From: Polyangiales bacterium | GTDB taxonomy: Bacteria; Myxococcota_A; Polyangia; Polyangiales; Polyangiaceae | DNA: 64,000 bases | Direction: 5' to 3' | NCBI GenBank assembly: GCA_038231275.1 | Contig: JBBRLQ010000009.1 | Coordinates: 128,001-192,000 of the forward strand | Shown: positions 1 through 16,637 of the stretch, one piece after another | Position numbering within the stretch: position 1 is the first letter of the stretch | How the letters are laid out: each line of letters starts with the position of its first letter | Program-made: the position numbers and the translations under genes | The notes under the pieces: generated by a model | Told to the model about the DNA's origin: nothing | The model's input: only the letters and a program-made list of their open reading frames with translations | The model's database searches: none

Positions 1-2526
1 GAGGGTGCGGTACGGCATGATGCGCACGGTGAACCACCGCCCGTCCTTGGTGCCGACCTGCTTCTCGGCCGAGACGAGGCGTCGCAGCACCTCGCGCGCG
101 TCATCGTGAAGATCCGGGTAAATGAAATCCTGAGCGAGATCGGTGATGGGCCGGCCGGCGTCGCTCGGGATGAGCTTGATGAGCTTCGCCATCTGGGTCG
201 TGAAGCGCCGCACGTTGAGATCGCCGTCGAGGAAGAGCGTCGCGATGTCGGTGCTGTCGAGGAGGTTCTTCATGTCGCTGCTGGCGCGGAGCAGCTCGTC
301 CACCTTCGCTTGCAGCTCGTGGTTCAGGGACTGAAGCTCCTCGTTCATCGACTGCATCTCTTCTTTCGACGTCGTCAGCTCCTCGTTCGTGGACTGGAGC
401 TCCTCGTTCGCCGACTGGAGCTCTTCGTTGGTGGAGGTCAGCTCCTCGGCGGCGATCTGCATCTCCTCGCGCGTCGCGTGCAGCTCATCGCGCGCCACGC
501 GGAGCTCGCTCTCGCGCGTCGCGCCGCGAGCCCCCCTGAGCCGCTCGGGGGGCGGCGCCGCGGGCTTTCCAACCTCCGCGAAGAGGACCATCGCCGTGCC
601 GCGCAAGGACGGCGGCTCCTTCAGCGGCTCGATCGTGACGTCAACGCGCCGCGCGCGGTCCATCCTCACGCCCGTAGCAATGACCGTCTGCTTCTTGCGA
701 AACGCCTTGCGGAAGGCGGGCTCAAGCGCGTTGGCGAGGCCTCCGCGCGCCATCGCGAAGACGTTCCAGTTGGCCTTCCCCGCCGCCGGCTCGAGGAACG
801 CGCCGATCCTGCCGCTGATGTAGAGGACGTCCCCGCGATCGTTCGCGAGGACGGCCGCTGGACCGAAGCGCTGGAGCAGCAGCCGATCGGCTTGCGACTG
901 GAACGAGGGCTGCATCGCCTGGATCTCGGCCGCGGCCGAGACGCGTGCTCGTGGGAGCGGAGTAGGAGAAGAAGGGACCTCGGGACGGGAGGCGGCGCGG
1001 CCCTGCTCGAGGCGATGGTAGACGCGGCTCCGGTGCCCTTCCTGCGCGAACAGCCCCGTGAAGCCGCCGACCGTCTCCGACGTCCCGAGGACGAGCACCC
1101 CGCCGGGCCTCAGGCTGTAGTGAAAGAGAGGCAGGAGCTTCTGCTGGAGCGCCGGGCTCAAGTAGATGAGGACGTTCCTGCACACGAGGAGATCGAGCTT
1201 CGTGAATGGCGGGTCCTGGATGACGTTCTGGACCGCGAAGACGATCCGCTCGCGGACCTCCGCGTTGACGCGGTACCCGCGCGGATCGGCGACGAAGAAA
1301 CGGCGCAGTCGTTCGGGCGAGACCTCGGCGGCGATGCTCGCGGGATACACGCCCTGGCGCGCGCGCTCGATCGCGTCGGGATCGAGATCGGTCGCGAAGA
1401 CCTGGAGCATCAGCTTTCGCGGCGGCTCGAGCGCGGCGATCGCCTCTCTCAGGACGATGGCGAGGGTGTACGCCTCCTCGCCCGTCGAGCAGCCGGTGAC
1501 CCACGCGCGGACGGTGGAGCCCGCCGCGCGCGCGCCGAGGAGCGTCGGGAGCACGTCGCCTCGAAGCTTCTCCCAGACGTCGGGATCGCGGAAAAACGAG
1601 GTCACGCCGATGAGGAGCTCCCGGAACAGGAGCTGCAGCTCCTTCGGGTTGTCGCGGAGGTACCGGAGGTATGCCGGGAGCGCGTCGAGCTGGTGGAGCC
1701 CCATTCGTCGCTCGATGCGCCGGTAGATCGTATTCCGCTTGTACAGCGAGAAGTCGTGGCCGGTCTCCGCTTGGAGCAAGCCGACGATCTGCTCGATGGC
1801 GCTCTTCGCCGCGGCCTCGAGCGAAGCGTTCGACGCGGGCGACGGAGTGGGTGCGCGCCGGCCGCCAAGAATCCGCTGCACGAGCTCGTGGGCTGGCGCG
1901 ACCCCATCGACCTGCCCCGCGTCGATGGCGCTCCGTGGCATGCTGTCGAACTTCGCGGAGGCGGGCGTCTCCGCGAAGGTCCGCCCGCCCTTCTCTTTGA
2001 TCGCGCGGAGGCCGAGCGTGCCGTCCGAGCCCATGCCGGACAGGATCACGCCGACCGCGTGCTCTCCTTGATCCTCGGCGAGCGTTTGGAAAAACGAGTC
2101 GATGGGCAGGCGACGTCCGCGCGCGCCCGCGGGAGCGAGCAGATGGAGTGAGCCGTGCCGGATCGCGAGATCTTTGTTCGGCGGGATGACGTACACGTTG
2201 CCCGGCTCCACCCGCGAACCGTCGCGCGCTTGCGCCACCGGCATCGCGCTGACGCGTTGGAGGAGCTCGACGAGGAGCCCCTTGTGCGTCGGGTCCATGT
2301 GCTGCACGACGACGAACGCGAGGCCGCAGGCCTGCGGCACGTTCTCGAAAAAGCGCTCGAGGGCTTCGAGGCCGCCCGCCGACGCTCCGATCCCGACGAC
2401 CGCAAACGCGTGCGGAACGGACGTCCTCGCGATGGGCTTTCGCGACGCGGTTCGCGCGCGGCGCGCTCGTGCATCGGGCCTGTCGGACTTCCTCACCGCG
2501 TCCCTACCCCTTTTGATCGGCCCCAT
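1..2526 (-). CDS. CheB methylesterase / CheR methyltransferase / PAS fusion protein (3' end runs off the window)
   Basis: Not in the ORF track; translated by hand. N-terminal part reads AVVGIGASAGGLEALERFF...FVVVQHMDPTHKG (CheB). The window-edge part reads QVGTKDGRWFTVRIMPYRTL (PAS-type tail of CheB/CheR fusions). Start is ATG 2526 or GTG 2496. Confidence 0.9.
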   Translation of the reverse strand, partial: MGPIKRGRDAVRKSDRPDARARRARTASRKPIARTSVPHAFAVVGIGASAGGLEALERFFENVPQACGLAFVVVQHMDPTHKGLLVELLQRVSAMPVAQARDGSRVEPGNVYVIPPNKDLAIRHGSLHLLAPAGARGRRLPIDSFFQTLAEDQGEHAVGVILSGMGSDGTLGLRAIKEKGGRTFAETPASAKFDSMPRSAIDAGQVDGVAPAHELVQRILGGRRAPTPSPASNASLEAAAKSAIEQIVGLLQAETGHDFSLYKRNTIYRRIERRMGLHQLDALPAYLRYLRDNPKELQLLFRELLIGVTSFFRDPDVWEKLRGDVLPTLLGARAAGSTVRAWVTGCSTGEEAYTLAIVLREAIAALEPPRKLMLQVFATDLDPDAIERARQGVYPASIAAEVSPERLRRFFVADPRGYRVNAEVRERIVFAVQNVIQDPPFTKLDLLVCRNVLIYLSPALQQKLLPLFHYSLRPGGVLVLGTSETVGGFTGLFAQEGHRSRVYHRLEQGRAASRPEVPSSPTPLPRARVSAAAEIQAMQPSFQSQADRLLLQRFGPAAVLANDRGDVLYISGRIGAFLEPAAGKANWNVFAMARGGLANALEPAFRKAFRKKQTVIATGVRMDRARRVDVTIEPLKEPPSLRGTAMVLFAEVGKPAAPPPERLRGARGATRESELRVARDELHATREEMQIAAEELTSTNEELQSANEELQSTNEELTTSKEEMQSMNEELQSLNHELQAKVDELLRASSDMKNLLDSTDIATLFLDGDLNVRRFTTQMAKLIKLIPSDAGRPITDLAQDFIYPDLHDDAREVLRRLVSAEKQVGTKDGRWFTVRIMPYRTL

Positions 2527-2606: not shown

Positions 2607-3752
2607 GTGTCGACCCTCGAGTCCTCTGCCTCAACCCTCCGGCGTGCGATCGCGTCTGCGAGTCGCGGCCTCGTCGAGCGCGAGGCCCTCGTCGAGCTCA
2701 TCGCGCTCTCGGCTGTCGCCGGCGAGCACATGCTCGTGGTGGGGCCGCCGGGTACGGCGAAGAGCGAGGCCGTCCGTCGCATCGCCGGCGCGTTCGGGGG
2801 CAGGTACTTCGAGTACTTGCTGGGTCGGTTCACCGAGCCGAGCGAGATCTTCGGCCCGGTCGATCTGCGAAAGTTGCGCGAGGGGACCGTGGAGACGGAG
2901 ACGCGCGGGATGCTCCCCGAGGCGGAGATCGCCTTTCTCGACGAGGTGTTCCTCGGCTCGACGGCCATCCTGAACACGCTCCTCGGCGTCCTGAACGAAC
3001 GGACGTTCCGTCGCGGTCACACGCAGCTCGCGTGCCCGCTGCGTGTGTGCGTCGGCGCGTCGAACCAGCTCCCGGAGGACGAGATGCTGGCGGCGTTCGC
3101 CGATCGCTTCCTCGTGCGCGCGTTCGTGGAGCCGATCGCCGACGCGCGGATCGAGGATCTCCTGGAGGGCGCGTGGGCGATGGGGCAGAGCCCGAGAAAG
3201 GTGCATTCTGCACCGATGCTCGACGACCTCGACACGCTGGCGCGTGCGGCCGGCGCGGCGGACATGACCGGCGTACGCGACACGCTCGCGCACGCGCTTC
3301 GGAAGCTGCGCGCGGCGGGGATCGTGCTGTCGGATCGGCGCGCGACCAAGATTCAGCGGCTCGTCGCTGCGGCCGCCGCGCTGGCGGGGCGAGCGACACC
3401 AACCGGCGCCGATCTCTGGCCGATCGTGTACGCGGTACCGACGGAGCCGGCGCAGCGGACCGCCCGTGAGGCGCTGCGTGCGTTGCTCGAGGCGTCGGAG
3501 AACACGGCGCTCCAGTCGGCGGCGCTCGAGGCTTCGCAAGGCCCGCGCGCGCGGGCGACGCGCATCGTGACCGCCGGTCGCGCGCTCCTCGCCGAGGCGT
3601 CGCCCGGGGCCGGCGACGGCGCGGCAGAGGGCAGGCGGCTCAAGGTCGAGGGCATCCTCCGCGAGATCGACGCGGCGTTCGGCGAGGAGCAGCTCACCGA
3701 GGATCTGCGCACGCTGCGCGCGGATCTCGCCCGTACACTGCCCTCGTCGTGA
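2607..3752 (+). CDS. MoxR-family AAA+ ATPase (RavA-like) of a MoxR-vWA-beta-propeller system
   Basis: Walker A GPPGTAKS, YFEYLLGRFTEPSEIFGP, Walker B IAFLDE, GASN, DRF; first gene of an overlapping four-gene operon. Confidence 0.92.
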   Translation: MSTLESSASTLRRAIASASRGLVEREALVELIALSAVAGEHMLVVGPPGTAKSEAVRRIAGAFGGRYFEYLLGRFTEPSEIFGPVDLRKLREGTVETETRGMLPEAEIAFLDEVFLGSTAILNTLLGVLNERTFRRGHTQLACPLRVCVGASNQLPEDEMLAAFADRFLVRAFVEPIADARIEDLLEGAWAMGQSPRKVHSAPMLDDLDTLARAAGAADMTGVRDTLAHALRKLRAAGIVLSDRRATKIQRLVAAAAALAGRATPTGADLWPIVYAVPTEPAQRTAREALRALLEASENTALQSAALEASQGPRARATRIVTAGRALLAEASPGAGDGAAEGRRLKVEGILREIDAAFGEEQLTEDLRTLRADLARTLPSS

Positions 3753-4162
3753 AGCTCGCGTGGGGACTTCGTGAGCCACCGCTCGGCGCGACGGCGGCCG
3801 CAGCAGAAGGGGACGCGGCGCGCGCGATGGCCAAGCGCTTGATGGCGCGTGCGCCCGCTGACCTCGCGCGCCTGCGCGGCGTGGCGTCGACGTCGGTGCT
3901 CGTCGTCCTCGGCGAGGCGGACGATCTCCCGTGGGTGGAGGGGGCGAGCTACCTCGGTCGCGATCCGATCGCGCCGTCGCTTTGGTTGCCGACGACGCGC
4001 GCGCCGAGCGTCTCGGCCGCGTTGCTCGAGCGCGCGCTCGTTCATTTGCCGTCGCGGGGTCCATGCGCGGTGCTCCTCGCGCCGTCGCGCATCGTGCCGC
4101 TCTCGGCGGCGCGCCCCGTCGTGCACGAGCGCTTGGCGGCGTTCCTCGCGGAGGCGTCGTAG
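3749..4162 (+). CDS. bpX5-like small protein of a MoxR-vWA-beta-propeller ternary system
   Basis: W..REPPL and LPWVEGASYLGRDP.AP.LWLPT motifs; GTGA overlap with the MoxR stop; family assignment from memory. Confidence 0.7.
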   Translation: MKLAWGLREPPLGATAAAAEGDAARAMAKRLMARAPADLARLRGVASTSVLVVLGEADDLPWVEGASYLGRDPIAPSLWLPTTRAPSVSAALLERALVHLPSRGPCAVLLAPSRIVPLSAARPVVHERLAAFLAEAS

Positions 4163-5931
4163 TGCGCCTCCCTCGCGCGCTCGCGGCGTGGGAGGCGGAG
4201 CTCTCGCTGTTTCCGGAGGAGGTGGCGCTGGGCCTCGGTGGTGTCGTCGCGCGCCTCGCGCTCGCGATCGGACCGATGCGGGCGCGCGCGCAGCGGGGCC
4301 TCGGCACGCCCGACGGGTACGACGGCCTCTCCCGCCGCGGTGACTACGCGCGCCTCGTCATGACCGAGTGGCTGCTCGCCGACGAGATCCCCGAGGAGTT
4401 CGTGCGCCGCGTGGCGATGGGTGAGCACGCGTTCCTGGCGCGCGCGTTCGAGCAGCCGGCCTCGTCGCGGAGGAGCGTGGTGCTCTTCGACGCCGGCCCG
4501 GAGCAGCTCGGGGCGCCGCGCGTCGCGCAGCTGGCGGCGCTCGTCACGTTCGCGCAGCGTGCCGCCGATGCGCGAGCAGAGCTGGCGTGGGGGACGTTGC
4601 AAGCGCATCACGCCTCACTCGCCGAGGCGGTGACGCCGGCCGGCGTCGCGGCGCTCCTCGATGCACGGACGCGGAACCTCGCGCGGGCGGCCGATGTCGA
4701 GGTCGCGGTACGCCGGGCGGGAGCTCGTGGGGCGCACGACGAGCTGTGGATCGTGGGCAGCGCGGCGCTCGCCGAGGCGGCGGCGCGTGTCGGCGCGTCG
4801 TTCGTTCAGATCGACGACGTCCTCGAGCCAGAGGCCCACGAGCTGCGCGTGCGCGTCGTCCCTTCGCGCGGCGCCGAGCGGGGTGTCGTCCTCGAGCTCC
4901 CGTCCCCCCAAGTGACGACGCGGCTGCTCCGCGACCCGTTCCAGGTGGCGACGTCCACGGCGACCGGCGCCGATCATGCGCCGTCGCGCGCGCCCGGCAA
5001 CGTTGTCTTCTCCGCCGACGGGCGGAAGATCTTCGCGCGGACCGACGACGGGAGCCTCCTCTCCCTCGCGCTCCCCGGCTCGCCGCGCGCGGCCCCTGCC
5101 CCCGTCGCGCGTTATCGTCCTCCGTCCGGTCAGCGCGTCGTCGCCGCGGGATGGTCGCGCTCGCAGAAGCGCGTCCAGGTGATGACGCAAAAAGGTGACG
5201 GCGCGATGGTGCTGCACACGCTCTCGCGTCGCGGGAGCCAGTCCATCTCGGAGACGAGCTTCGCCGCCCTCGATCCGCCGGCTCCGGCGGGAGATCTCGC
5301 GGCGCTCTACCGTGAGCGGGAGGGCGCGATGTGCATGCTCGATGCGTGCGGGCGCCTCCTACGTCTGAACAAAGAGGCGGACGTCGACTGGATCAGCGTG
5401 GTCGCCGTCGTGTCGGGCTCCGGCCGCAGCGAGTGCGCCGCGATCGCGCTCGGTGAGTTCGTCGAGCTCGTGACGAAGCAGGGAGACGCGCCGGTCTCGA
5501 CGGTGCGCGTCCCGGTGCAGCTCGCGCGCGCGCCACGCGTCTTCTTCGGCGCGCGGCCGCCTCGGTGGCTCGCGGTGGTGGAGACCGGCGAGGACGAGTG
5601 GACCCTCGTGCGTCCGGAGCCAGGAGACGCGATCCGCGAGCGATGGGTCGTCCCCGCCGGGCGCGAGGTCTGCGGAGTGCTCGAGACCGAGTGGGCGCCG
5701 CCGAAGCCCGCGCTCGTGATGCTCGACGGCGAAGGTCAGGCGCTCCGGCTGTTTCGGCCGGAGGGCACCGAGCAGATCGTCACCTCGGAGCCGCGCATCC
5801 TGCACGCGACGGTGAGCCCGGGCGCCCGCGACATCGCGTACGGCACGGAGCGCGGCGAGCTCGTCGTCCACTCGCTCGCGGCGCGTGCCGTGATCGCGCG
5901 CATCGCGCCGAGCGCGCCCGAGGCGAAATGA
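4162..5931 (+). CDS. vWA-like (MoxR partner) plus C-terminal beta-propeller protein
   Basis: GTG 4162 overlaps the upstream TAG. PDGYDGLSRRGDYARLVMTEWLLADE.PEEFVRR...EHAFL precedes a degenerate MIDAS-like strand VVLFDAGPEQLG; propeller-like blades (VFSADGRKIF, TVSPGARDIAYGT). Confidence 0.7.
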   Translation: MRLPRALAAWEAELSLFPEEVALGLGGVVARLALAIGPMRARAQRGLGTPDGYDGLSRRGDYARLVMTEWLLADEIPEEFVRRVAMGEHAFLARAFEQPASSRRSVVLFDAGPEQLGAPRVAQLAALVTFAQRAADARAELAWGTLQAHHASLAEAVTPAGVAALLDARTRNLARAADVEVAVRRAGARGAHDELWIVGSAALAEAAARVGASFVQIDDVLEPEAHELRVRVVPSRGAERGVVLELPSPQVTTRLLRDPFQVATSTATGADHAPSRAPGNVVFSADGRKIFARTDDGSLLSLALPGSPRAAPAPVARYRPPSGQRVVAAGWSRSQKRVQVMTQKGDGAMVLHTLSRRGSQSISETSFAALDPPAPAGDLAALYREREGAMCMLDACGRLLRLNKEADVDWISVVAVVSGSGRSECAAIALGEFVELVTKQGDAPVSTVRVPVQLARAPRVFFGARPPRWLAVVETGEDEWTLVRPEPGDAIRERWVVPAGREVCGVLETEWAPPKPALVMLDGEGQALRLFRPEGTEQIVTSEPRILHATVSPGARDIAYGTERGELVVHSLAARAVIARIAPSAPEAK

Positions 5932-8900
5932 AGCTCCTCCGCGTCGCCCACGCGGGCCGCGTCCTCTGCCGCGGCTTCTTTTTCGGGCCGCCACTAGGCG
6001 AGGACGAGGCGCGCGCGCGCATCCTCGCGCGGTTTCGTCCGGGCGCCACGGTTCGCCGGACCGAGGGAGGGCTCGTGCTCCTCCTCGCAGAGCCTACGTG
6101 GGTTCGTGTGGACGCGTCGCCCGGCGCTCCGCTCGTCGCGCAGGCGCACGTCCTGTCGTCGGCGCCGCTGACGAACGCAGAGCTCGTCGCCCTCGCGGCG
6201 CCGCCCGAGGCGCTCGTGCTTGCGCGCGCCGGTGCCGCGGTGGTGCTCGCGCCGCGCGCCGGCGACGAAGAGGACCCGGCGCGGTGGCTCGACACCTCCG
6301 AGGTCATCGTGCTCGGCGTGACATCGCTCGGCGCGCCGCCGCCCGCGCCCCGCGTCGCGCCCGCCCCGCCGCCGCTCGACGTCCGCGCCGCGTTGAAAGC
6401 GCCGGCCGCGTCGGCAGAGCTCGCCGCGGTGCGCGCGGCGCTCGAACAGATGCGCGCCGGCGTGGAGTCGTCGGCGGGTCGCTCCCTGGCGCGCGCCGAA
6501 ACGTCCAGCGGGGGAATGGACGCCTTCGCGCGCGCCGCTCGTACGGCGCTGGCAGGCGTCGCGCGCCTCTTCGCGTCCGTTCTCGGTCTCTTCGGGCGCG
6601 CGGCGTCGGCGTCGGAGTCCGCGTCCCGTCGAACCTCCGAGGCCGCGAGCTCGCGGGCTCTCGCGGCGCGTCCGGCGCCGCCGAGCGGACCAAGCTTCCT
6701 CGAGCGTCTCCGCGCGCGCGTCCTCGACGTCGCGGCGCGGCTCCTCGTTCTTTCGCGAATCGCCCGCTTTTTCGAGCGCGCCCACGCGCAGTACCTCTCG
6801 AAAATGATCGACATGTTCGAACGCGGCGATCTCGAGGACGCGCTGCGCCACGCGATCCCGCTCGGTCAAGGAGACGGTTCGAGCGGTCCACCCGCGCTCC
6901 TCCCCGGAGGACCGCGCGCGGATCTCTCGATCTCGCCATGGCGCGCTCCCGCCCGAGGCGCGATCGGCCTCGGCGGCGCCCTGTTCGAGGATCTTCGCAC
7001 CATGTACCGGCGCGCGTTCGAGCGGCTCGTGGCCATGGGCGCGATCGAGCGCGCGGCCTTCGTCCTCGCGGAGCTGCTCGGCGCGAACGAAGAGGCCGTG
7101 TCGTTCCTCGAACGCCACGGGAAATACGAGCTCGCTGCGCAGATCGCCGAGGCGCGGGACCTGCCGCCGGGGCTCGTCGTTCGCCAGTGGCTCCTCGCGG
7201 GCGACACCCCGCGGGCGATCGCGATCGCCCGCGCGAAGGGGGCGTTCGCCGACGCCGTCGCGCGCCTCGAGCGCGCGGGGCCGCCGTACGCGAGCCTCGC
7301 CGTGCCGCTCCGCCTCCGGTGGGCCGACGTCCTCGCCGAAAGCGGGGCGTACGCCGCCGCCGTCGACGTCGTGTGGCCGGTCGAGAGCGCCCGTCCGCTC
7401 GCGCGCGCGTGGATCGAGCGCGCGCTCCTCGTCGGCGGCGCGACGGCAGGGACGATGCTCGCGCGGAAGGCGTCGCTGCCTGGCACGTTCGCGGAGGTGC
7501 GCGCGCAGGTCCTCACGCTTTTTGGTGACGCCGAGCCGGAGATCGACGCCACGCGCGTGGCCTTCGCGTCTGCGCTCGCCGCAGGACCCGCGACTGCGGA
7601 GACGCGCGTCCTCGCGAGGCCGGCTGCGCGCGCGCTCCTCGCAGGTCGCGCCGCCGCCGCCGCGCTCGGCCGCCGAAAGAGCGCCGCCCTCGCCGAGCGC
7701 CTCGCCGTCTTCTCCAACGATCCGGCGCTGCGCGCCGACATGCGCCCGCTCGTCGTCACGCCGCGCGTCCCCAACATCCGAATCTCCGTTGCAGGCTTCT
7801 CCATGATCGGCGAACGGAACATCAACGAGGACGCGATCGACTTCGGTCACCTGATGGAGGGTGGCCGTCGCGCCCATGGCACCAACCTCACGGTTCATGG
7901 CTTCTTCCTCCATGTTCTCGACGGGAGCGGGGGCGGCGAACCCCCTCGTCACCCCGCGACGATCGCTGCGGACGCGGTCCATGACGTCCTCACGCGCGAC
8001 GCCGGCGCAGGTCGGACCCGCGATGCGCTCGCGCGGGACCTGCGCGCCGCCGTTCGTGAGGCCAACCGGCGCATCTTCGAGGCGTCGACGCGCGATGTCC
8101 GGATGCGCGGCATGGGCAGCACGAGCACGTGCGCGGCGCTCGTCGACGGCGCGCTCGTCGTGTCGCAGGTCGGCGACTCGCGCGCGTACCTCCTGCGCGG
8201 AATGCGCTTCGAGCAGCTGACGCGCGACGACTCGCTCCTCGAGGCCTACAAGGACCAGCCCGGCTCGTTCACGGAGGTTGAGCTCGCCGACCTCCCGCAG
8301 AACATCATCACCAAGGCGCTCGGCATGGCGAGCGAGCTAGAGCCGCGCATCTCCGTCGTCCCGCTCCAGCGCGGGGACGTGGTGCTCTTGACGACCGACG
8401 GCGTCCACGCGCTCCTGCCGTCCGAGGCGCTTCCGACGCTCGCCCGCGGCGCCCGCGACGCACGCGGCCTCATCGAGGCCATTCGCGCCCGCATGGCTGT
8501 CGCGCAGGCCGCGGACAACTACAGCGCGGTGGTCGCGCGCTTCGACGGGACCGATCTGCCGGTGGAGCTTTCACCAGGCCCCTCGGCGTCCCCTTACGAG
8601 CCGGCGCCATCGTCGCTCGCCAACGTCGGCGAGGTGTCGCTCACCAGCCGCGTCGATCCGCTCGTGCACGCGCGCGAGGAGGGGGACGTCGGCGCGCTCG
8701 CCATTCACGACGCAGCGCTTCTTCCGGACGGCCGGCTCCTCGTCGCGCTCGGCGAGCTCGGCGTGCGGCTCCTCTCGCCGGCCGGAAAGACGCTCGCCCA
8801 TTTCGGCGAGCCCGCGCACCACCTCGTCGTGAGCACCTTCGGCGATCGCGCGATCGCGCTGGCCTCTCGCGGCGACGCCTGGCGCGTCGCGAAGATCGAT

Positions 8901-9413
8901 CTCGTCGGCCGCCGCGTACGCGCATGGCACGACGCGCGCTTCGATCGGTGGGCCCCGTCGTTCGACGGCGCGCGCTTCTTCTGCTCCCTCGGCGCGCGCG
9001 TCTTCGCGGTCGACGCCATCGCGGACGACTGGAGCGCGACATGGACCGTGACCGTCGACGAAGGAAAGCCGAGCGCGTTGTCGGTCGACGCGAATGAGCT
9101 CTGCGTCGTCGTCACGCGCGCGAAGGACGCGCACGTCCTGTGGCGCTACGATCTCGCGACGATGACGCTTCGCGGTCGCACCCCGAGCATGGTGCCGCCG
9201 CGGCTCGGCTGGTCGTGGGAATCGTCCGACGACATGGTCTCCCTGCTCGACGCGGACGGCCGTGCCCGACTCGCACTCCGGCTTCGTGGCGCCCGCTCTC
9301 CATGTGCGCGCGTGGACGGCGCCGACTTCGTGGTCTTCGACGACCGCGGCAGGCTGATCGTCCTCTCACGCGCGACCGGCGAGGTCCTCCGCGAGCACCG
9401 CGTCGCCCCGTGA
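5928..9413 (+). CDS. bpX6-like multidomain protein: N-terminal bpX6-like domain, helical repeats, internal PP2C phosphatase (~7782-8543), C-terminal beta-propeller
   Basis: ATGA overlap at 5928; LGEDEARARIL...PGAPL...LSSAPL N-terminus; PP2C motifs RNINED, LDGSGG, MGST, VGDSRAY, NIITKALG, LLTTDGV, DNYSAVV. Confidence 0.8.
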   Translation: MKLLRVAHAGRVLCRGFFFGPPLGEDEARARILARFRPGATVRRTEGGLVLLLAEPTWVRVDASPGAPLVAQAHVLSSAPLTNAELVALAAPPEALVLARAGAAVVLAPRAGDEEDPARWLDTSEVIVLGVTSLGAPPPAPRVAPAPPPLDVRAALKAPAASAELAAVRAALEQMRAGVESSAGRSLARAETSSGGMDAFARAARTALAGVARLFASVLGLFGRAASASESASRRTSEAASSRALAARPAPPSGPSFLERLRARVLDVAARLLVLSRIARFFERAHAQYLSKMIDMFERGDLEDALRHAIPLGQGDGSSGPPALLPGGPRADLSISPWRAPARGAIGLGGALFEDLRTMYRRAFERLVAMGAIERAAFVLAELLGANEEAVSFLERHGKYELAAQIAEARDLPPGLVVRQWLLAGDTPRAIAIARAKGAFADAVARLERAGPPYASLAVPLRLRWADVLAESGAYAAAVDVVWPVESARPLARAWIERALLVGGATAGTMLARKASLPGTFAEVRAQVLTLFGDAEPEIDATRVAFASALAAGPATAETRVLARPAARALLAGRAAAAALGRRKSAALAERLAVFSNDPALRADMRPLVVTPRVPNIRISVAGFSMIGERNINEDAIDFGHLMEGGRRAHGTNLTVHGFFLHVLDGSGGGEPPRHPATIAADAVHDVLTRDAGAGRTRDALARDLRAAVREANRRIFEASTRDVRMRGMGSTSTCAALVDGALVVSQVGDSRAYLLRGMRFEQLTRDDSLLEAYKDQPGSFTEVELADLPQNIITKALGMASELEPRISVVPLQRGDVVLLTTDGVHALLPSEALPTLARGARDARGLIEAIRARMAVAQAADNYSAVVARFDGTDLPVELSPGPSASPYEPAPSSLANVGEVSLTSRVDPLVHAREEGDVGALAIHDAALLPDGRLLVALGELGVRLLSPAGKTLAHFGEPAHHLVVSTFGDRAIALASRGDAWRVAKIDLVGRRVRAWHDARFDRWAPSFDGARFFCSLGARVFAVDAIADDWSATWTVTVDEGKPSALSVDANELCVVVTRAKDAHVLWRYDLATMTLRGRTPSMVPPRLGWSWESSDDMVSLLDADGRARLALRLRGARSPCARVDGADFVVFDDRGRLIVLSRATGEVLREHRVAP

Positions 9414-9542
9414 AAGAGCCCTCGTCCAAGAAAGGCCGGTCCCGGAAGGCCCGACTCGGCGTATCCTAGAGGTGCCCCGCATCGCACCTTGACCCCCATC
9501 CGCAGCGGATGGCACCATTTCAGGTAAGAGGCCCCCCGCTCC

Positions 9543-11021
9543 ATGTCCGAGTCGCAGCAGCGGTACCGCGTCGTCGAGAAGCTCGAGTCGGGCGGCATGG
9601 CCGAGGTTTTCCGCGCGGAGAGCGAGGGGCTGCAGGGCTTCAAGAAGCAGGTCGCGATCAAGCGCGTCCTGCCGCACCTGTCCGAGAAGAAGAAGTTCAT
9701 CTCGATGTTCCTCGACGAGGCGCGCCTCTCCGCGCAGCTCTCGCACTCGAACTGCGTGCAGGTCTTCGACATCGGCGTCGGCGACAACGCGTACTTCATC
9801 GTCATGGAGTTCGTCGACGGGGCGAACCTCAAGGCCATCGCCGAGGCGATCAAGAAGAGCGGGCGCGACTTCCCGGTTCCTGCGGCGGCGCTCATCGCGC
9901 TCGAGATCACGAAGGGCCTCTCCTACGCGCACGAGATGCGCGACCCCAACGGGATGGATCTCCACATCGTGCACCGCGACATGTCGCCGCCGAACGTGCT
10001 GGTGACCAAGTACGGCGAGATCAAAATCGTGGACTTCGGTCTCGCGAAGGCGAACTCGCAGCTCGAGAAGAGCGAGCCCGGCATCATCAAGGGGAAGTTC
10101 TCGTACCTGTCGCCCGAGGCGGCGATGGGGCAAGAGGTCGACGCGCGGACCGACATCTTCGCGGTCGGCATCATCTTGTGGGAGCTGCTCGCGGGGCAGC
10201 GGCTGTTCTTGGGCGAGACCGATTTCCAGACGGTGAAGAAGGTCCAGCAGGCCGTCGTCCCGTCGATCTCGAACATCAACAAGCGCGTGCCGCCGGAGCT
10301 GGAGCGCATCATCAACAAGACGCTCGCGCGCGAGCCCGCCGCCCGTTACCAGACGGCGCGTGATCTCGGGATGGAGCTGTCGAAGTTCCTCTTCTCGAAC
10401 GGCCAGCCCGTGAGCACATTCGACATCGCGTCACTCGTCGTCGGCGCGATGAAGGACAAGGCCAAGCATCGCGCGCCGCAAGGATCCATCATCGACAAGC
10501 TCATCGAGGAGGCGCTCCTCGAGTTCACGTCGCTCACCGACGACGCGCGCGAGGCGGCGCAGAAGCTCTCCGGGTCGAAGAAGCCGCCGCCCCTCGCCGC
10601 CGGCTCCGCGCCGCTGCGCGCCGATCAGTTCGTGGATCCGACGAACTGGGCGAAGGAGATCTCGCTCGGTGACATCACCGGCGGTGCCGACGACTCGATT
10701 CGTGCCTCGCTCCCGCCCGACGTCTTCCAGGCAGGGAATCTCTCCGCGCTCGAGGACGAGCCGCACTCCTCGCCGATGCCGTCGCCGCGCGGTGGAACGC
10801 CGCAGCCGTCTCCCGCGATGCAGGGGTCGCCCGGCTCGAACCCGCACCACATGAGGTCGTCGTACCCGCCGCCGATGATCCCGATGCCCCGGCACGGCAT
10901 GCAGCAGGCGCCGCCGCAAAAGAAGGGCGGCCTCGCCGGCGCGATCGTGGGCGTCGCCGTGGTCCTGTTCGCCGCCGCCGCCGCTGCCGCCGCGTGGTTC
11001 ACGCACTTGATTCCGCACTGA
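9543..11021 (+). CDS. Ser/Thr protein kinase with C-terminal transmembrane anchor
   Basis: GGMAEVF, VAIK, HRDMSPPN, DFG, YLSPE; Pro-rich linker; hydrophobic C-terminus. Confidence 0.95.
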   Translation: MSESQQRYRVVEKLESGGMAEVFRAESEGLQGFKKQVAIKRVLPHLSEKKKFISMFLDEARLSAQLSHSNCVQVFDIGVGDNAYFIVMEFVDGANLKAIAEAIKKSGRDFPVPAAALIALEITKGLSYAHEMRDPNGMDLHIVHRDMSPPNVLVTKYGEIKIVDFGLAKANSQLEKSEPGIIKGKFSYLSPEAAMGQEVDARTDIFAVGIILWELLAGQRLFLGETDFQTVKKVQQAVVPSISNINKRVPPELERIINKTLAREPAARYQTARDLGMELSKFLFSNGQPVSTFDIASLVVGAMKDKAKHRAPQGSIIDKLIEEALLEFTSLTDDAREAAQKLSGSKKPPPLAAGSAPLRADQFVDPTNWAKEISLGDITGGADDSIRASLPPDVFQAGNLSALEDEPHSSPMPSPRGGTPQPSPAMQGSPGSNPHHMRSSYPPPMIPMPRHGMQQAPPQKKGGLAGAIVGVAVVLFAAAAAAAAWFTHLIPH

Positions 11022-11034
11022 AGTGCGGAATCAA
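11007..11034. repeat. Perfect 13-bp inverted repeat overlapping the kinase stop codon
   Basis: TTGATTCCGCACT-GA-AGTGCGGAATCAA. Confidence 0.85.
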
Positions 11035-11040
11035 ATGACG

Positions 11041-11129
11041 CCTTTGTTTGTGTGGGCTTGCAGCCCCTCCACGCCGGACGGCGTGGAGACCTCCCCGCGT
11101 CGCCCTTCGGGCGAAGTCGCGGGGCGCGA
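11041..11129 (+). repeat. Structured dispersed element, copy 1 (candidate ncRNA or REP-like repeat)
   Basis: CCTTTGTTTG followed by three hairpins; aligns with the reverse complement of 30126-30217 with compensatory changes. Confidence 0.7.
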
Positions 11130-11185
11130 CGGCGGACCCTGACGACTTGCCGGGGGGGAGAATTTTGGGGTATGCGAGGGGGGCC

Positions 11186-11950
11186 GTGGTGGGTTCTCGC
11201 AGTATTCGACTTTTTTTTGGGGGGGCGCTCGCTGGGGGGGTCCTCGTGGCGACGGTGCCGGTGGCGGAGGGGCGGGGAGGGGCGTGTCCGAGCGGGATGG
11301 CGCTGATCGCTCCGCCTGAGGATGGGGCGCTGACGGAGCGGTATTGCATCGATCGGTGGGAGGCGTCGCTCGTCGAAGTGACCACCCACGGGAGCGCGCC
11401 GTTCTCGCCGTACGAGATGGTGAAGGGGCGGACTGTGAAGGCTGTCTCGCGCTCGGGCGTCGTTCCGCAGGCGTACCTCTCACGCAACGAAGCCGCCGCC
11501 GCGTGCAAGGCGTCGAAGAAGCGTCTGTGCACCGAAGAGGAGTGGACGACGGCGTGTCAGGGCAAGCGCCCGACCACGTACCCGTACGGCGACACCGCCC
11601 GCCCCGGCTCGTGCAACGACAGCGGTACCGCGCCGCTCCCCGCGCTCTATCCGGAGAACGACGAGGCCGCGCACTCGTTCGAGCCGATGAACGATTCACG
11701 CCTCAACCAGCAGCCGAACACGCTCAGCCGCACGGGCGCGCATCGTCGCTGCACGAACAGCTACGGCGTCTTCGACATGGTCGGCAACCTGCACGAGTGG
11801 GTGGACGATCCGAACGGCACCTTCCGCGGCGGCTACTACCTCGACACCCACATCAACGGTGATGGGTGCCGTTACCGTACGGTCGCGCACGACGCCGCGT
11901 ACCACGACTATTCGACCGGCTTTCGCTGCTGCGCCGATCTCGCGCGTTAG
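11186..11950 (+). CDS. Secreted FGE-sulfatase (SUMF1-like) domain protein
   Basis: CPSGM, YCIDRWEA, KRLCTEEEW..AC, YPYG, GVFDMVGNLHEW, GFRCC; start uncertain because the 5' sequence is G-rich. Confidence 0.85.
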   Translation: MVGSRSIRLFFGGALAGGVLVATVPVAEGRGGACPSGMALIAPPEDGALTERYCIDRWEASLVEVTTHGSAPFSPYEMVKGRTVKAVSRSGVVPQAYLSRNEAAAACKASKKRLCTEEEWTTACQGKRPTTYPYGDTARPGSCNDSGTAPLPALYPENDEAAHSFEPMNDSRLNQQPNTLSRTGAHRRCTNSYGVFDMVGNLHEWVDDPNGTFRGGYYLDTHINGDGCRYRTVAHDAAYHDYSTGFRCCADLAR

Positions 11951-12023
11951 GCGCGAGATCTCGGCGTACCCTCAAGGGTTCGCGTGGCGCGCCGTTCGTC
12001 GCCGCCAGGGGGAGAATCCATCA

Positions 12024-13205
12024 ATGACGACCCGCATCGCCACGTCCATCGCCCGCGGCACGCCCGCCGCCGCCGCGTCGCAGCTCGCGAACGATCTCAC
12101 ATCCCAACTCGGCGGCGCTCCGCCGGTCCTCGTCGTCGTCTTCGCATCGACCGCGCAGCCGCTCGGCGAGGTCGTACGGCACCTGGCTCCGTCGGTGGGC
12201 GGCGCGGTGCTCCTCGGCGCCTCCACCGCTGGAGAGTTCACCGAGAAGGGGGACGCGAAGGGAGCGGTCTGCGCGTTCGCCCTCGCGGGCGACTACAAGG
12301 TGTACGCGGGGATGGGTCGTCGTCTCAAGGAAGCGCCCGCCGAGGCCGTCAAGCACGCCATCTCCGAGCTTCCGCGCACCATTCCTGGTTATGGGCACCG
12401 CACCGGCATTTTGCTGCTCGATCCGCTCGCGGGCAATGGTGAGGAGGTCACGCTGCTCACCGCCTCGCATCTCGGCGCCGACGAGCCGCTCGCGGGCGGC
12501 GCCGCGGGGGACGATCTGCACATGGCGTCGACGCTCGTGTCGTGCGGCACGGACGCGGCCTCCGACGCGCTCGTCGTCGCGCAAATCTTCTCGAAGCAGG
12601 CGCTCGGCCTCGGGGTCTGCCACGGTCACACGCCGCTCAGTGAGCCGCTCCGCGTCACCCGCGCGAGCGGAAACGTCGTCGAGCAGATCGACGGACGACC
12701 TGCGTGGGACGTATGGCTCGAGCGCACCACGACGCGCGCCCGAGAGCGCGGCGTCGACCTCGCCACGATGCCCGCGGCCGACGAGGGGGCTTACCTCTTG
12801 CGCTACGAGGCGGGCATCGCCGCAGGCACCGAGCTCAAGATCCGAGCGCCGCTCTCCCGCAGCGCCAACGGCGCGATCAGCTTCGCGTGCGGCATCCCCG
12901 AGGGCACGGTCTTCCGGATCACCGAGAGCGCGCCCGAGTCACAAGTGGCGAGCGCGCGCGAGGCGGCACGTCGGGCCCGCGCACAGCTCGGAGGCAGCAC
13001 CGCGGCCGGCGCGCTCGTCTTCGACTGCATCTGCCGCAACCTCATCCTCGGCGACGGCTTCTCGGCAGCGGTGAAGGGCATGAGCGAAGAGCTGGGCGGC
13101 GTGCCGCTCGCGGGCTTCGAGACCTACGGCGAGATCGCGCTCGACGCGGGGGATCTGAGCGGCTTCCACAACACGACGAGCGTAGTCCTCGCCTTCCCGA
13201 CCTGA
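12024..13205 (+). CDS. FIST N/C signal-transduction protein
   Basis: LLGASTAGEF, LAGGAAGDD, GNVVEQIDGRPA, FDCICR, PLAGFETYGEI, FHNTT. Confidence 0.9.
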   Translation: MTTRIATSIARGTPAAAASQLANDLTSQLGGAPPVLVVVFASTAQPLGEVVRHLAPSVGGAVLLGASTAGEFTEKGDAKGAVCAFALAGDYKVYAGMGRRLKEAPAEAVKHAISELPRTIPGYGHRTGILLLDPLAGNGEEVTLLTASHLGADEPLAGGAAGDDLHMASTLVSCGTDAASDALVVAQIFSKQALGLGVCHGHTPLSEPLRVTRASGNVVEQIDGRPAWDVWLERTTTRARERGVDLATMPAADEGAYLLRYEAGIAAGTELKIRAPLSRSANGAISFACGIPEGTVFRITESAPESQVASAREAARRARAQLGGSTAAGALVFDCICRNLILGDGFSAAVKGMSEELGGVPLAGFETYGEIALDAGDLSGFHNTTSVVLAFPT

Positions 13206-13216
13206 GGGGTTCAGCC

Positions 13217-13783
13217 GTGGCGAGGGACCACCTTTCGAGGAGGACAATAAAGCGGAGCCAGCTCGTGGGGCTCCTCGAGCCGACCCTTGGCTTGGACAAG
13301 AGCGAGACGTTGGTGTTGACGGCGTCGCGCGAGCTCGTCATCCCGCAGGGTGACGAGATCCGTGTCGACCATGTGCTCGCGATCCTCGACCGTCTCGGAG
13401 AGATGGACGGAATCGCGGGGGTGGCCGCCCGGTTCGTGCGCGCGCGGGGTGAGCTCGACGCGCTGATCGCCCCGTCGGCGGCGAGCGCGCCGGCCCCCGC
13501 GCTCACGACGACGACCCCGGGCGGTGGCGTCGCGTTCGCGCGCCCCGCCGCAACGCCGCACGTGCCGTTCGAGGAGATCGCGATGTTCGTCGCGCCCGCG
13601 CTTGGCGATGCGGTGGCTCGAGCGTCGGTCGCGAAGCACGCCGCCGCGCTTGGCATCAAAGGCTACGACGCGACACGCGCCGAGGCGGCCCAGATCCTCG
13701 ACGGAATGTCGAAGGCGGAGGGCATCCTCGGCATCGTCGCGAGCTTCGCGAAAGCTCGCTTCATCCTCAAGTATCCGACGTGA
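13217..13783 (+). CDS. Hypothetical protein with a tandemly duplicated ~65-aa helical domain
   Basis: Two similar halves (L.P.LG......V......L.I...ILD.+....GI.G+.A.F.+AR) joined by an Ala/Pro/Thr linker; starts 11 nt after the FIST gene. Confidence 0.7.
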   Translation: MARDHLSRRTIKRSQLVGLLEPTLGLDKSETLVLTASRELVIPQGDEIRVDHVLAILDRLGEMDGIAGVAARFVRARGELDALIAPSAASAPAPALTTTTPGGGVAFARPAATPHVPFEEIAMFVAPALGDAVARASVAKHAAALGIKGYDATRAEAAQILDGMSKAEGILGIVASFAKARFILKYPT

Positions 13784-13786
13784 CGC

Positions 13787-14545
13787 TTACTGGCAGTCGA
13801 TCCGGTTGTACGCCGTGATGTGGCAGCCGGCGCGCTTGCAGTCGCGCGCGTGGACGAACTTACCGCCCTGGCACGTCAGCTCGCTCTTCGTGTCCATCGA
13901 GCAGACGACCATCCCGGGGACGCCGCAGGGATCGTTGAGCTCCGCCACCGACTCGTCACAGTTGTAGTCGCCGCTCGCTTTGATCGAGCACGCGGTGGCG
14001 CCGCGGCAGTAGCGGTAGAGATCGAACTTGCCGTCCTTGCACTGGAGGAGCTGCTTGAAATCGGCGCTGCACGCGAACGTGCCGGGCTTCTTGCAGGGAT
14101 CGTCCTTGGCCTGGAGGCTCGTGTCGCAGCTGACCGTGTCCTGCAGCGTCGCCCAGTCGTGCTTGATGCTGCACGACTTGGGGCCGCGGCAGTTGTAGTT
14201 CAGCTTGAACTTGCCCTCGTCGCAGATGAGCGCGCGCTTCTTGTCGAGCGAGCATGCCCAGTTCTCCGACTGGTTCAGCATGCAGCCGTCGCCTTCGTCG
14301 GCGATCTCGTCGTCGCACTGCACCTTCTTGGTGGCGCGGTCCTGCGTGCAGCCTTGCGGGCCTTTGCAGGGGACGAGCTGGAGCGTCATGTCGGCGCCAC
14401 ACGCGAGCGCGTTGTGGGCGTCGCCGCAGGTGGCCTGACCAGGGGAGCATTTGCCGCCCAGCTTCGGCTTGCAGCTCGCCAATACGACGAGCAGGCACAT
14501 CACGACGAAGAGGATCAACGACCGGCGAAGGAAACGTGACGACAT
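13787..14545 (-). CDS. Cys-rich repeat lipoprotein
   Basis: Lipobox VLASC; about four repeats of C..D.+..L.C..G+F.....C+G...C. Confidence 0.8.
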   Translation of the reverse strand: MSSRFLRRSLILFVVMCLLVVLASCKPKLGGKCSPGQATCGDAHNALACGADMTLQLVPCKGPQGCTQDRATKKVQCDDEIADEGDGCMLNQSENWACSLDKKRALICDEGKFKLNYNCRGPKSCSIKHDWATLQDTVSCDTSLQAKDDPCKKPGTFACSADFKQLLQCKDGKFDLYRYCRGATACSIKASGDYNCDESVAELNDPCGVPGMVVCSMDTKSELTCQGGKFVHARDCKRAGCHITAYNRIDCQ

Positions 14546-14674
14546 GGATTCTCCGTGCGGGTGGGTACTTCGCGAGACGTTTGCACCGAAGCTACTCGCC
14601 GCGGTCGTCCTAAGAAAACAGGGCAAATGGCCCCAGTAAAGGATTTTGCGCCGAGGCCCCCTAAAAACGCGGAT

Positions 14675-15961
14675 TCAGCTCACGAAAAAGCGCGCGAGCA
14701 CGCGCGTCATCATCTCCGGATCCTTCGCGCCGCCCATTTCTCGGCAGGAGTGCATGCTCAGCATCGGGTTGCCGACGTCGACGGTGGGGATGCCGAGGAG
14801 CGTCGAGGTGATCGGGCCGATGGTGGTGCCGCACGGGAGGTCCGTGCGATGCGCGTACTGCTGGAGCGGCACCTCGGCGGCGCGGCACAGCTCCGTGAAC
14901 ATCGCGGCGGTGCGGCCGCTGGTCGCGTAGCGCTGCTGGGCGTTGACCTTGAGGACGGGGCCGCCGTTGAGGACTGGGCGGTGGCGTGCCTCGTGGCGCT
15001 CGGGGTAGTTCGGGTGGATTGCGTGCGCCATGTCGGCGGACACGCAGAGGGAGCTCGCGGTCGCGCGCGCGACGTGGTCGGCGGTGCCCCCGGTCGCGGT
15101 GACGATGCGCGTGAGGACGCGCGGGAGGAACGCCGACTCGGCGCCGCTGGCGCTCTTGCTTCCCACCTCTTCGTGATCGAAGAGCGCCGCCATCGGCACG
15201 AGCCCGGTCCCCGCCGCGCCAGGCGCCGCCTGCACGAGCGCGGCGATCGCGGCGTGCGACATGGCCAAGTTGTCGAGTCGTGCCGAGAAGAGGAGCTCGT
15301 CCTTCGCGCCGCCCAGCGCGGGGGCGAGCGTGTCGTAGAGCATGAGATCGAGGGTCACGATGTCGGTCCGCGCGACGCCCGCCGCACGGGCGCAAAGGTC
15401 GGCGAGCTCCTCTGAGCCCTTCTCGGCGAGGCCGAGCACTGGCGCGAGGTGCTCCTGCTTGTTGAGGACCAGGCCCTTCTCGGTGACGTCGCGATCGAAG
15501 TGAATCGCGAGCTGCGGCACGCGCAGGAGGGGCTTGTCGAGCTTCACGAGGCGCGTCGTGATCTCGCCGGCGGTGCCACGGACGAGCAGGCGCCCGGCGA
15601 GCGCCAGATCGCGATCGAGCCATGAATTGAGGAGCACGCCGCCGTACACCTCGACGCCGAGCTGGAGGTACCCCTCCTTCGTGTACTCGGCCTTCGGCTT
15701 GAGCCGCAGGTTGGGGCTGTCGGTGTGCGCGCCGACGAGCCGGAACGCGCGCGGCGGCTTCGCGTCGGGGACGACGAACGCCAAGAGCGCGCTGTCCTCT
15801 TGCACGACGTAGTAGCGGCCCGCGGCGAGGCCATCCCACGACGCGCGCTCGTCGAGGCGCCCGAACCCTGCGCTGCCGAGGCGCGCGATCGCGCTGGCCA
15901 CGGCATGGTACGGCGTCGGCGAGTCGCGGAGGAAGGAGAGGAGGTCGGCGAGGATGGTCAC
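14675..15961 (-). CDS. M18-family (aspartyl) aminopeptidase
   Basis: SPTPYHA, GAHTDSP, EVYGG, SWLDRDL, RLDNL, DHEEVGS, SADMAHA.HPNY, CGTTIGP, MHSCRE; start could also be ATG 15982. Confidence 0.95.
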   Translation of the reverse strand: MTILADLLSFLRDSPTPYHAVASAIARLGSAGFGRLDERASWDGLAAGRYYVVQEDSALLAFVVPDAKPPRAFRLVGAHTDSPNLRLKPKAEYTKEGYLQLGVEVYGGVLLNSWLDRDLALAGRLLVRGTAGEITTRLVKLDKPLLRVPQLAIHFDRDVTEKGLVLNKQEHLAPVLGLAEKGSEELADLCARAAGVARTDIVTLDLMLYDTLAPALGGAKDELLFSARLDNLAMSHAAIAALVQAAPGAAGTGLVPMAALFDHEEVGSKSASGAESAFLPRVLTRIVTATGGTADHVARATASSLCVSADMAHAIHPNYPERHEARHRPVLNGGPVLKVNAQQRYATSGRTAAMFTELCRAAEVPLQQYAHRTDLPCGTTIGPITSTLLGIPTVDVGNPMLSMHSCREMGGAKDPEMMTRVLARFFVS

Positions 15962-16007
15962 GATGACGGGAAGGTAGACCATCTTCCGGCCGTTTCGCGG
16001 CGGAAAG

Positions 16008-16637
16008 TCACGCGGGCGCTCCACGTGCGATGCGCGCGATCTCCGGGTGCTCGGCGAGACGCTTCATCGCGCGCGCCAGCAGTGTCTTTCCGGGCTCCAT
16101 CTTCGGCCACGGGCTCGCGCCGCTGGGGTGCGGCAGGCAGATCGCGTCCATCTCGACGCCGTGGTAGCGCACCTGCTCCGTGGTGCCGATCACGTCGGCC
16201 AGCTTCCGTCCCTTACCGAGCACCTCGTCGATCGCAAGCGTGCCGACCGGGATGACCAAGGACGGCTTCAAGATCGCGACCTCGCGCGCGAGGAAGGTCT
16301 TGCACGCGGCGATCTCCGTCGCGTCGGGTCGCCGATCGCCGCCGCCCGAGGATTTCCCGGGAAAGCACCGCGCGACCGCCGCCATGTAGATTCTCTGGCG
16401 GAACGTGTCCTCGTCGATCCCGGTCCCTTCGAGGAACCAGCGGAAGAGCGTCCTGCCCGCGGTCCACGCGAACGGACGACCGAACGAGCCCTCGCGCGGC
16501 CCCGGCGCTTGACCGACGAGAATCACCTTCGACGGCACCGGCGGTCCGTGCACGACCGGTCCGATCATCTTCGGGCACGCCTTGCACGCGTCGAGCTCTT
16601 CGTGGAGCACCTCGAGGGCGCGGACGACGCTGCTCAT
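16008..16637 (-). CDS. Uracil-DNA glycosylase family protein
   Basis: C..CP, LVGQAPG, RCFPG, LPHPSG; ATGA overlap with the upstream gene. Confidence 0.85.
   Translation of the reverse strand: MSSVVRALEVLHEELDACKACPKMIGPVVHGPPVPSKVILVGQAPGPREGSFGRPFAWTAGRTLFRWFLEGTGIDEDTFRQRIYMAAVARCFPGKSSGGGDRRPDATEIAACKTFLAREVAILKPSLVIPVGTLAIDEVLGKGRKLADVIGTTEQVRYHGVEMDAICLPHPSGASPWPKMEPGKTLLARAMKRLAEHPEIARIARGAPA

Follow-up and report, generated by a model that had tools for sequence, protein, structure and literature searches.

Whether a phosphatase built into a predicted conflict system and a kinase encoded directly downstream of it form one regulatory switch is the question raised by a locus in a Polyangiales genome (assembly GCA_038231275.1). 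The locus lies in a stretch of 64,000 nt that is called the window below (contig JBBRLQ010000009.1, positions 128,001 to 192,000). It comprises four overlapping genes, the last of which encodes a scaffold protein of 1161 amino acids (aa) with a PP2C domain, and a gene for a membrane Ser/Thr kinase on the same strand. From the letters alone, this arrangement had been interpreted as a MoxR-vWA-beta-propeller conflict system that may be controlled by or act through reversible phosphorylation, with the PP2C as effector or off-switch and the kinase as its counterpart (the sequence-only reading). Our analysis confirmed the cassette and its phosphatase; the more striking claim, that of a self-contained kinase-phosphatase switch, does not hold.

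The four genes are on the forward strand and are joined by GTGA, TAGTG and ATGA overlaps, the open reading frames (ORFs) and junctions being as the sequence-only reading had described them. The first gene (2607..3752) encodes a MoxR AAA+ ATPase of 381 aa, which belongs to the bpMoxR clade (Pfam bpMoxR, E = 7e-87) and carries the P-loop variant GPPGTAKS at aa 46. It is followed by the genes for the bpX5 accessory protein (3749..4162; 137 aa; bpX5, E = 8e-32), for a protein with a divergent vWA-like domain and a C-terminal beta-propeller, in a short form without bpX0 or bpX1 (4162..5931; 589 aa), and for the third component (5928..9413; 1161 aa), in which bpX6 (E = 3e-23), a variable region, a helical solenoid, the PP2C domain (PP2C_2, E = 1e-8; PP2C, E = 3e-7) and a beta-propeller succeed each other. 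All these Pfam matches exceed the cut-off and bear out both the family call and the labels bpX5 and bpX6 of the sequence-only reading. The GC content at third codon positions (GC3) is 0.88-0.89 in the cassette genes, compared with 0.94 for the kinase. The GXXXTAKS form of the P-loop is described in section 22 of Kaur et al. 2020 (PMC7159879). To judge from this P-loop in a bpMoxR-clade MoxR, from the accessory bpX gene and from the bpX6 third component, the four overlapping genes are a member of the MoxR-vWA-beta-propeller ternary systems. With subsystem 4 of that paper, as its cited sections present it, they share the GXXXTAKS MoxR, bpX5, a propeller protein with a putative, divergent vWA-like domain, the bpX6 third component and the gene order.

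In the third component, the bpX6 domain (aa 7-163, 5946..6416) overlaps a variable region of low confidence in the AlphaFold model (aa 124-283). A TPR-like helical solenoid is predicted at aa 350-608 (6975..7751) and ends at an LRAD motif where the PP2C insert starts; no Pfam TPR match was obtained in it. The C-terminal all-beta region (aa 912-1158, 8661..9401) is a predicted beta-propeller on the basis of the AlphaFold strands, with a weak PQQ_2 match (E = 0.004, under the cut-off) and Atlas leads of 0.81 to PQQ_2 clusters. The layout of bpX6, variable region, TPR-like repeats and propeller is recognisable, the repeats and the propeller being predicted from the model and not from Pfam matches over the cut-off. 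The system in PMC7159879 is described with a membrane-spanning segment in the variable region; a canonical one was not found here, no 19-residue window in the hydropathy scan of the third component exceeding 1.55, and an amphipathic helix is present at about aa 198-222. In two relatives (P0145 and P0156) the variable region is expanded (about 290 aa) and includes several long hydrophobic stretches, as seen by eye, and it has no Pfam match. The long variable regions of ten insert-lacking relatives contained no further Pfam domain over the cut-off.

Between solenoid and propeller lies the inserted PP2C/PPM domain (aa 617-874, 7776..8549). It is supported by the Pfam matches, by its catalytic motifs and by an alpha/beta domain in the AlphaFold model, and the built-in phosphatase of the sequence-only reading is thereby corroborated. 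The motifs RxxNED, DG, GD-R, DG and DN are present, the residues R630, E634, D635, D665, G666, G749, D750, R752, D824, G825, D863 and N864 are intact, and these 12 of 12 key residues agree with the stand-alone PP2Cs of the host. In having all catalytic motifs the insert resembles PP2Cs (PPM) of the Stp1/PrpC type, with Stp1 and PstP as solved relatives; the best solved relative is Stp1 (2pk0, E = 1e-16), and the NCBIfam Stp1 model matches with E = 3e-34, which is below its cut-off. It differs from this type in being an internal domain of a 1161-aa scaffold and in having been repeatedly inactivated. Among 50 carriers, all four metal aspartates are found in 37 (29 of them also with the motif-6 aspartate), three in one, two in two, one in four and none in six. 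The insert studied here is, by its sequence, probably an active accessory phosphatase.

How the phosphatase came to be in the third component can be followed at the linker between solenoid and propeller, whose length is about 19 aa for the majority of relatives and 280-330 aa where PP2C is present. The insert was present in 28 of 99 matches of a query-biased search, at 11 of 80 genome loci, and in 18 of 32 family genomes (this one counted), 13 others being without it and one unscored. Of the best 150 representatives matched by a profile built only from PP2C-lacking proteins, 135 had no insert, one showed an intermediate gap from a partial match, and 14 had an insert of more than 250 aa, which was PP2C in 14 of 14. 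The linker was also considered as a general effector slot, and this was rejected because PP2C is the sole domain type seen there among these representatives. In a tree of 307 distinct relatives built on solenoid and propeller, with the insert left out, the 50 carriers of PP2C at this linker all belong to one clade of 66 (FastTree support 0.994). IQ-TREE on 80 rows, a subset without 12 near-duplicates and most outside rows and with the groups of the first tree, gave the carrier clade a Shimodaira-Hasegawa-like approximate likelihood ratio test value of 99 and nine state changes. When the inserts, including flanking residues, were compared with 13 stand-alone PP2Cs, all from the host genome, they fell on one side of a branch (96).

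Sixteen of the 66 clade members have no PP2C domain, most of them with a junction scar. Outside the clade, 209 of 234 scorable rows have a D-x-P motif, the ancestral state, after the solenoid; it is present in none of 38 scorable carriers and in one of 15 scorable in-clade non-carriers, the other 14 of which keep the derived junction. This pattern supports gain and subsequent loss; P0171, the sole in-clade non-carrier with D-x-P, may never have had the insert. According to trees and junctions, a single gain of PP2C in a myxobacterial lineage is likely, followed by frequent inactivation or deletion, with about eight losses within the clade. The nearest stand-alone relative of the insert is a conserved housekeeping PP2C, whose lineage is a candidate donor. 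In the host genome it is encoded at L158:4486-6497 (G000:C4) after an FHA-like gene (by eye), and it is highly conserved in 10 of 10 family genomes searched. As to the proposed effector or off-switch, the domain is there, but an indispensable role is weakened, since most family members never had PP2C and the clade lost it about eight times.

The kinase gene (9543..11021, forward strand) starts 129 nt past the stop of the third component at 9413 and encodes a protein of 492 aa (Pkinase, E = 2e-37, over the cut-off) that has VAIK, HRD and DFG as well as a single hydrophobic segment towards its C-terminus (aa 464-482), and its adjacency on the same strand, noted in the sequence-only reading, is real. 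It is within chance and unremarkable, because the host genome contains 293 kinase-like frames, one per 32 kb. At E <= 1e-120 the kinase was found in 34 of 41 relatives across the order, mostly in single copy, compared with five of 41 for bpX6, and no cassette gene was present in any of 20 kinase loci, several of which ended early at contig ends. G001, a genome of the same genus, represents the empty site: it aligns to the contig of the window from -6918 to -1774 and from 9447 to 15963 (window-relative) with about 47 nt between, and has the kinase without 11.2 kb including the cassette and a CheB-CheR fusion. The 96 nt upstream of the kinase (9447..9542) are common to G001 according to blastn and alignment, 9447 being the right edge of the insert. 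In the other direction, 29 of the 31 other family genomes carrying the third component were searched; 27 have the kinase, which is adjacent to the cassette in none of these 27 and lies on another contig or, in six closed genomes, 0.4-11 Mb away. A same-strand kinase within 2 kb downstream was found at none of 18 PP2C-bearing loci (18 of 20 had at least 2 kb downstream) versus two of 61 PP2C-lacking loci, which may include a few duplicate genomes. No terminator-like site was detected between third component and kinase, and a promoter scan, uninformative at such GC, gave no sigma-70-like site. Co-inheritance of the kinase with the cassette is rejected on the basis of the distribution in the order, the empty site, the 27 genomes and the 18 loci. 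The synteny survey that the sequence-only reading had proposed thus speaks against the kinase as counterpart: the kinase does not travel with PP2C-bearing versions, and its absence beside all other PP2C-bearing homologues examined is one half of what that reading had itself named as evidence against it. The kinase gene is an ordinary, conserved one and likely a bystander, the cassette probably having come to lie next to it by chance.

Since the left block and the kinase are likewise within about 0.4 kb of each other in three genomes that are more distantly related, the site without the 11.2-kb insert is likely the ancestral form. No target-site duplication was found at the insert edges, the longest shared word being an 11-nt inverted match. 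Besides the cassette, the insert holds a PAS hybrid histidine-kinase-like gene, read from sequence, and a CheB-CheR-PAS fusion gene on the reverse strand (1..2526; Pfam CheB, 8e-60; CheR, 4e-50; PAS_10), which runs off the left end of the window. These two genes (window-relative -1773 to 2526) diverge from the cassette and were not seen beside other cassettes, which suggests that two distinct insertions may have occurred at this site. At the left edge of the insert lies a small gene (window-relative about -2287 to -1800; L001:9344-9784), which G001 and G015 have in divergent orientation to the kinase and which we take to resemble a YbjN/CesT-type chaperone domain. On the other side, the kinase is the first gene of a block (9543-16024) followed by FGE-sulfatase-domain, FIST, cysteine-rich lipoprotein-like and aminopeptidase-like genes; G001 shows synteny over this block, and four further genomes over part of it.

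In the 589-aa protein the propeller could be substantiated, while the vWA label of the sequence-only reading could not be confirmed by a sequence or fold match. The AlphaFold model (predicted local distance difference test 87.7) shows an alternating alpha/beta N-terminal domain and about 27 C-terminal strands, and Foldseek returned WD40 propeller matches (E about 1e-10, probability 1.00). The protein has no Pfam match. No vWA was detected by Pfam, by a PDB sequence search or by hhalign against a CoxE-type vWA (0.2%), and the whole-chain Foldseek list contained propeller-type matches only. In the model, aa 103-257 show a strand-helix order which fits a vWA-type Rossmann fold, with D110 at the end of the first strand. 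D110 is invariant in 37 of 37 proteins, and G199 sits where the second aspartate would be expected. An Atlas lead of 0.89 connects the protein to a bpX1/bpX0 cluster. The domain is a putative vWA, a name based on the order of strands and helices, the invariant aspartate and the place of the gene; ternary-system vWA domains may lack one or both aspartates according to PMC7159879. The same source describes about four blades in the vWA protein, fewer than the roughly 27 propeller strands modelled here would make.

Some relatives of the cassette deviate from its gene order. At nine Corallococcus, Archangium and Myxococcus loci (L059, L060, L064, L068, L073, L074, L084, L095 and L099) MoxR and bpX5 are set apart by 1.6-5 kb of unrelated genes; this position looks like an insertion hotspot within the cassette. 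At Thermoanaerobaculia-type loci (L055, L058, L067, L069, L079, L094 and L096; P0076 and P0078-P0080) the vWA-like domain is fused straight to solenoid and propeller, and no bpX6, bpX5 or MoxR match exists in the locus, a one-gene form of the system. The host genome encodes a second MoxR (L157:6555-7730, G000:C14), 43% identical and also with GPPGTAKS, which overlaps a TsaB-like gene (by eye); no vWA gene is evident alongside.

The host is placed in the Polyangiaceae, in one family with genomes whose proteins bear Sorangium and Polyangium names. The third component is found in at least 32 of 301 family genomes, and its cassette is patchy also within genera (two of 19 genomes in one, seven of 15 in another). 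The flanks of PP2C-bearing loci differ between genera and consist of varied ordinary genes with scattered toxin-antitoxin-type matches alone, as seen in 111 of 147 called flank ORFs, the remainder being a small number of distal ORFs and those that flank four near-duplicate loci. No CheB or CheR occurs among these 111 at the other PP2C-bearing loci. Patchy presence and differing flanks fit a mobile accessory cassette.

What could the phosphatase do in such a cassette? The explanation we favor, at about an even chance, is that it would be a tethered accessory enzyme and, upon remodelling of the complex by MoxR, would dephosphorylate proteins that the many kinases of the host have phosphorylated. 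If the MoxR-vWA model of PMC7159879 applies, a complex of the vWA-propeller protein with the third component would exist at rest, and MoxR would remodel it with ATP once an invader is sensed. Solenoid and propeller would then hold a target which the PP2C dephosphorylates, and this could serve as an added output or as a reset. In most relatives the core does without this domain; the phosphatase would accordingly modulate the system and not define it. In favor of activity, two of the three genome pairs analysed with codon models had an insert omega of 0.11-0.24 (p < 1e-16 against 1). The same models gave 0.02-0.03 for the housekeeping PP2C ortholog, which the insert far outpaces (0.11-1.25 over the three pairs). 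Several observations weigh against this explanation. One or more metal aspartates are missing from 13 of the 50 copies, hence catalysis is not always needed, and in the Sorangium pair omega of the insert is 0.9-1.25. The active-site segments of intact inserts differ at 22.6% of positions versus 27.3% elsewhere, while in the housekeeping PP2C they are nearly fixed (2.9% versus 19.7%); such an unfixed neighbourhood fits no single conserved substrate. The predicted template modelling score of the third component is 0.44, and the domain packing in the model is tentative. No defence island was seen in the scanned flank ORFs, PADLOC had no model matching the four cassette proteins beyond a generic P-loop match, and the counts of kinase adjacency (0/18 and 0/27) leave out the DNA around P0006-P0008, the three closest relatives. 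Positive selection was considered but did not hold up. For the whole insert, a count-based omega of 2.1 in the Sorangium pair dropped to the above range under codon models aware of its GC3 (0.95). For the active-site face, values of 2.2-2.8 came from windows drawn post hoc, three mechanical windows giving 1.2-1.8 (p 0.065-0.55), and the permutation test of face-specific omega was not significant (73/1000 in the Sorangium pair, 235/1000 in dead pairs).

It is possible, though rather unlikely, that the PP2C is an integrated decoy or sensor, a bait copied from host signalling to which an anti-phosphatase protein or phosphoprotein of an invader would bind, triggering the MoxR complex, with catalysis incidental. 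The 13 aspartate-lacking copies would suit such a role, as they are not shortened (297-345 aa, flanks included in the cut), are spread over five or more separate branches by inspection of the tree, and diverge relative to the core by 0.5-3.0, like intact ones (0.3-3.6), and the nearest stand-alone relative is a conserved host protein. Further, inactive enzymes were proposed as decoys in related systems (PMC7159879, section 35), and a phage protein is described to inhibit a defence phosphatase (PMC11341870). Set against this are the four aspartates retained in 37 of 50 copies over deep divergence, the failed tests on the active-site face, and a linker at which PP2C was the one domain seen among the representatives, whereas bait slots would be expected to vary. 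Plant nucleotide-binding leucine-rich repeat receptors carry integrated domains, and by this analogy the PP2C would be the bait of a solenoid-propeller immune receptor in which live and dead copies both work and fire a MoxR-driven response, a picture that we hold only tentatively. The about eight losses and at least five decays, an omega of about 1 in the Sorangium pair and the faster divergence of the insert than of the core in 22 of 24 pairs could also be explained by a tolerated passenger, a PP2C gene fragment that entered a flexible linker once and decays slowly without a role in the cassette. The strong constraint in the two other pairs and the aspartates retained in 37 of 50 proteins merely about 40% identical make this improbable. 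Equally doubtful to us is a role in ordinary myxobacterial signalling, in which the MoxR-vWA pair would chaperone a scaffold that places the phosphatase. An assembly-chaperone function is known for MoxR-vWA pairs (PMC7159879, section 8), the scanned flanks offer no defence-island context, and a tested defence function for the beta-propeller subsystem was not found in the literature, the cited sections of PMC7159879 giving predictions only; patchy presence and genus-specific flanks better fit an accessory conflict cassette. The cognate switch, in which the downstream kinase and the built-in PP2C would toggle the complex, is very improbable. It could draw on the short same-strand distance, on the intact catalytic residues in both sequences, on the lack of a terminator-like site between them and on precedents such as Esr (10.64898/2026.09.08.750141) and the kinase-kinase-phosphatase (KKP) system (PMC11341870), and it is opposed by all the distribution data on the kinase given above.

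These precedents resemble the cassette in part. Esr of Actinomycetota is described as a threat-response locus that brings together MoxR, vWA, a phosphatase and a sensor with a propeller, with co-encoded kinases, an FHA output and the sensor being extracellular, whereas in the present system neither a kinase nor an FHA gene is co-inherited with the cassette, and the phosphatase is fused to the scaffold. KKP and the GAP1-N2 kinase-PP2C-vWA system (PMC7159879, section 29) likewise place a phosphatase in a conflict setting, but depend on linked kinases, and bpX components are not described for either in the cited texts. The kinase co-encoding and co-inheritance of such modules was seen at none of 18 loci, in none of 27 genomes and not at the empty site. 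Low co-organisation of kinases and phosphatases in myxobacteria is described in PMC2887360, in the available text of which such a scaffold-phosphatase fusion was not found. Nor did we find the architecture of a PP2C in the third component described in the literature: the single mention of PP2C in the available text of PMC7159879 concerns GAP1-N2, and two of its supplements contain none, although Figure 1-source data 1 may list the architecture. The domain itself is annotated, databases already labelling some members automatically as PPM-domain or PrpC proteins.

The identification of this clade is of interest for several reasons. As presented in PMC7159879, beta-propeller ternary systems show no conventional effector modules and no effector that could be recognised, and a tested function for them was not found in the literature; here an enzyme domain sits between solenoid and propeller, and the clade thus offers an assayable enzyme within the third component. 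Natural live, dead and deleted versions exist at one and the same junction, so that catalysis, binding and dispensability can be separated directly. Last but not least, the insert ties a ternary system to Ser/Thr signalling in the kinase-rich myxobacteria without a dedicated kinase.

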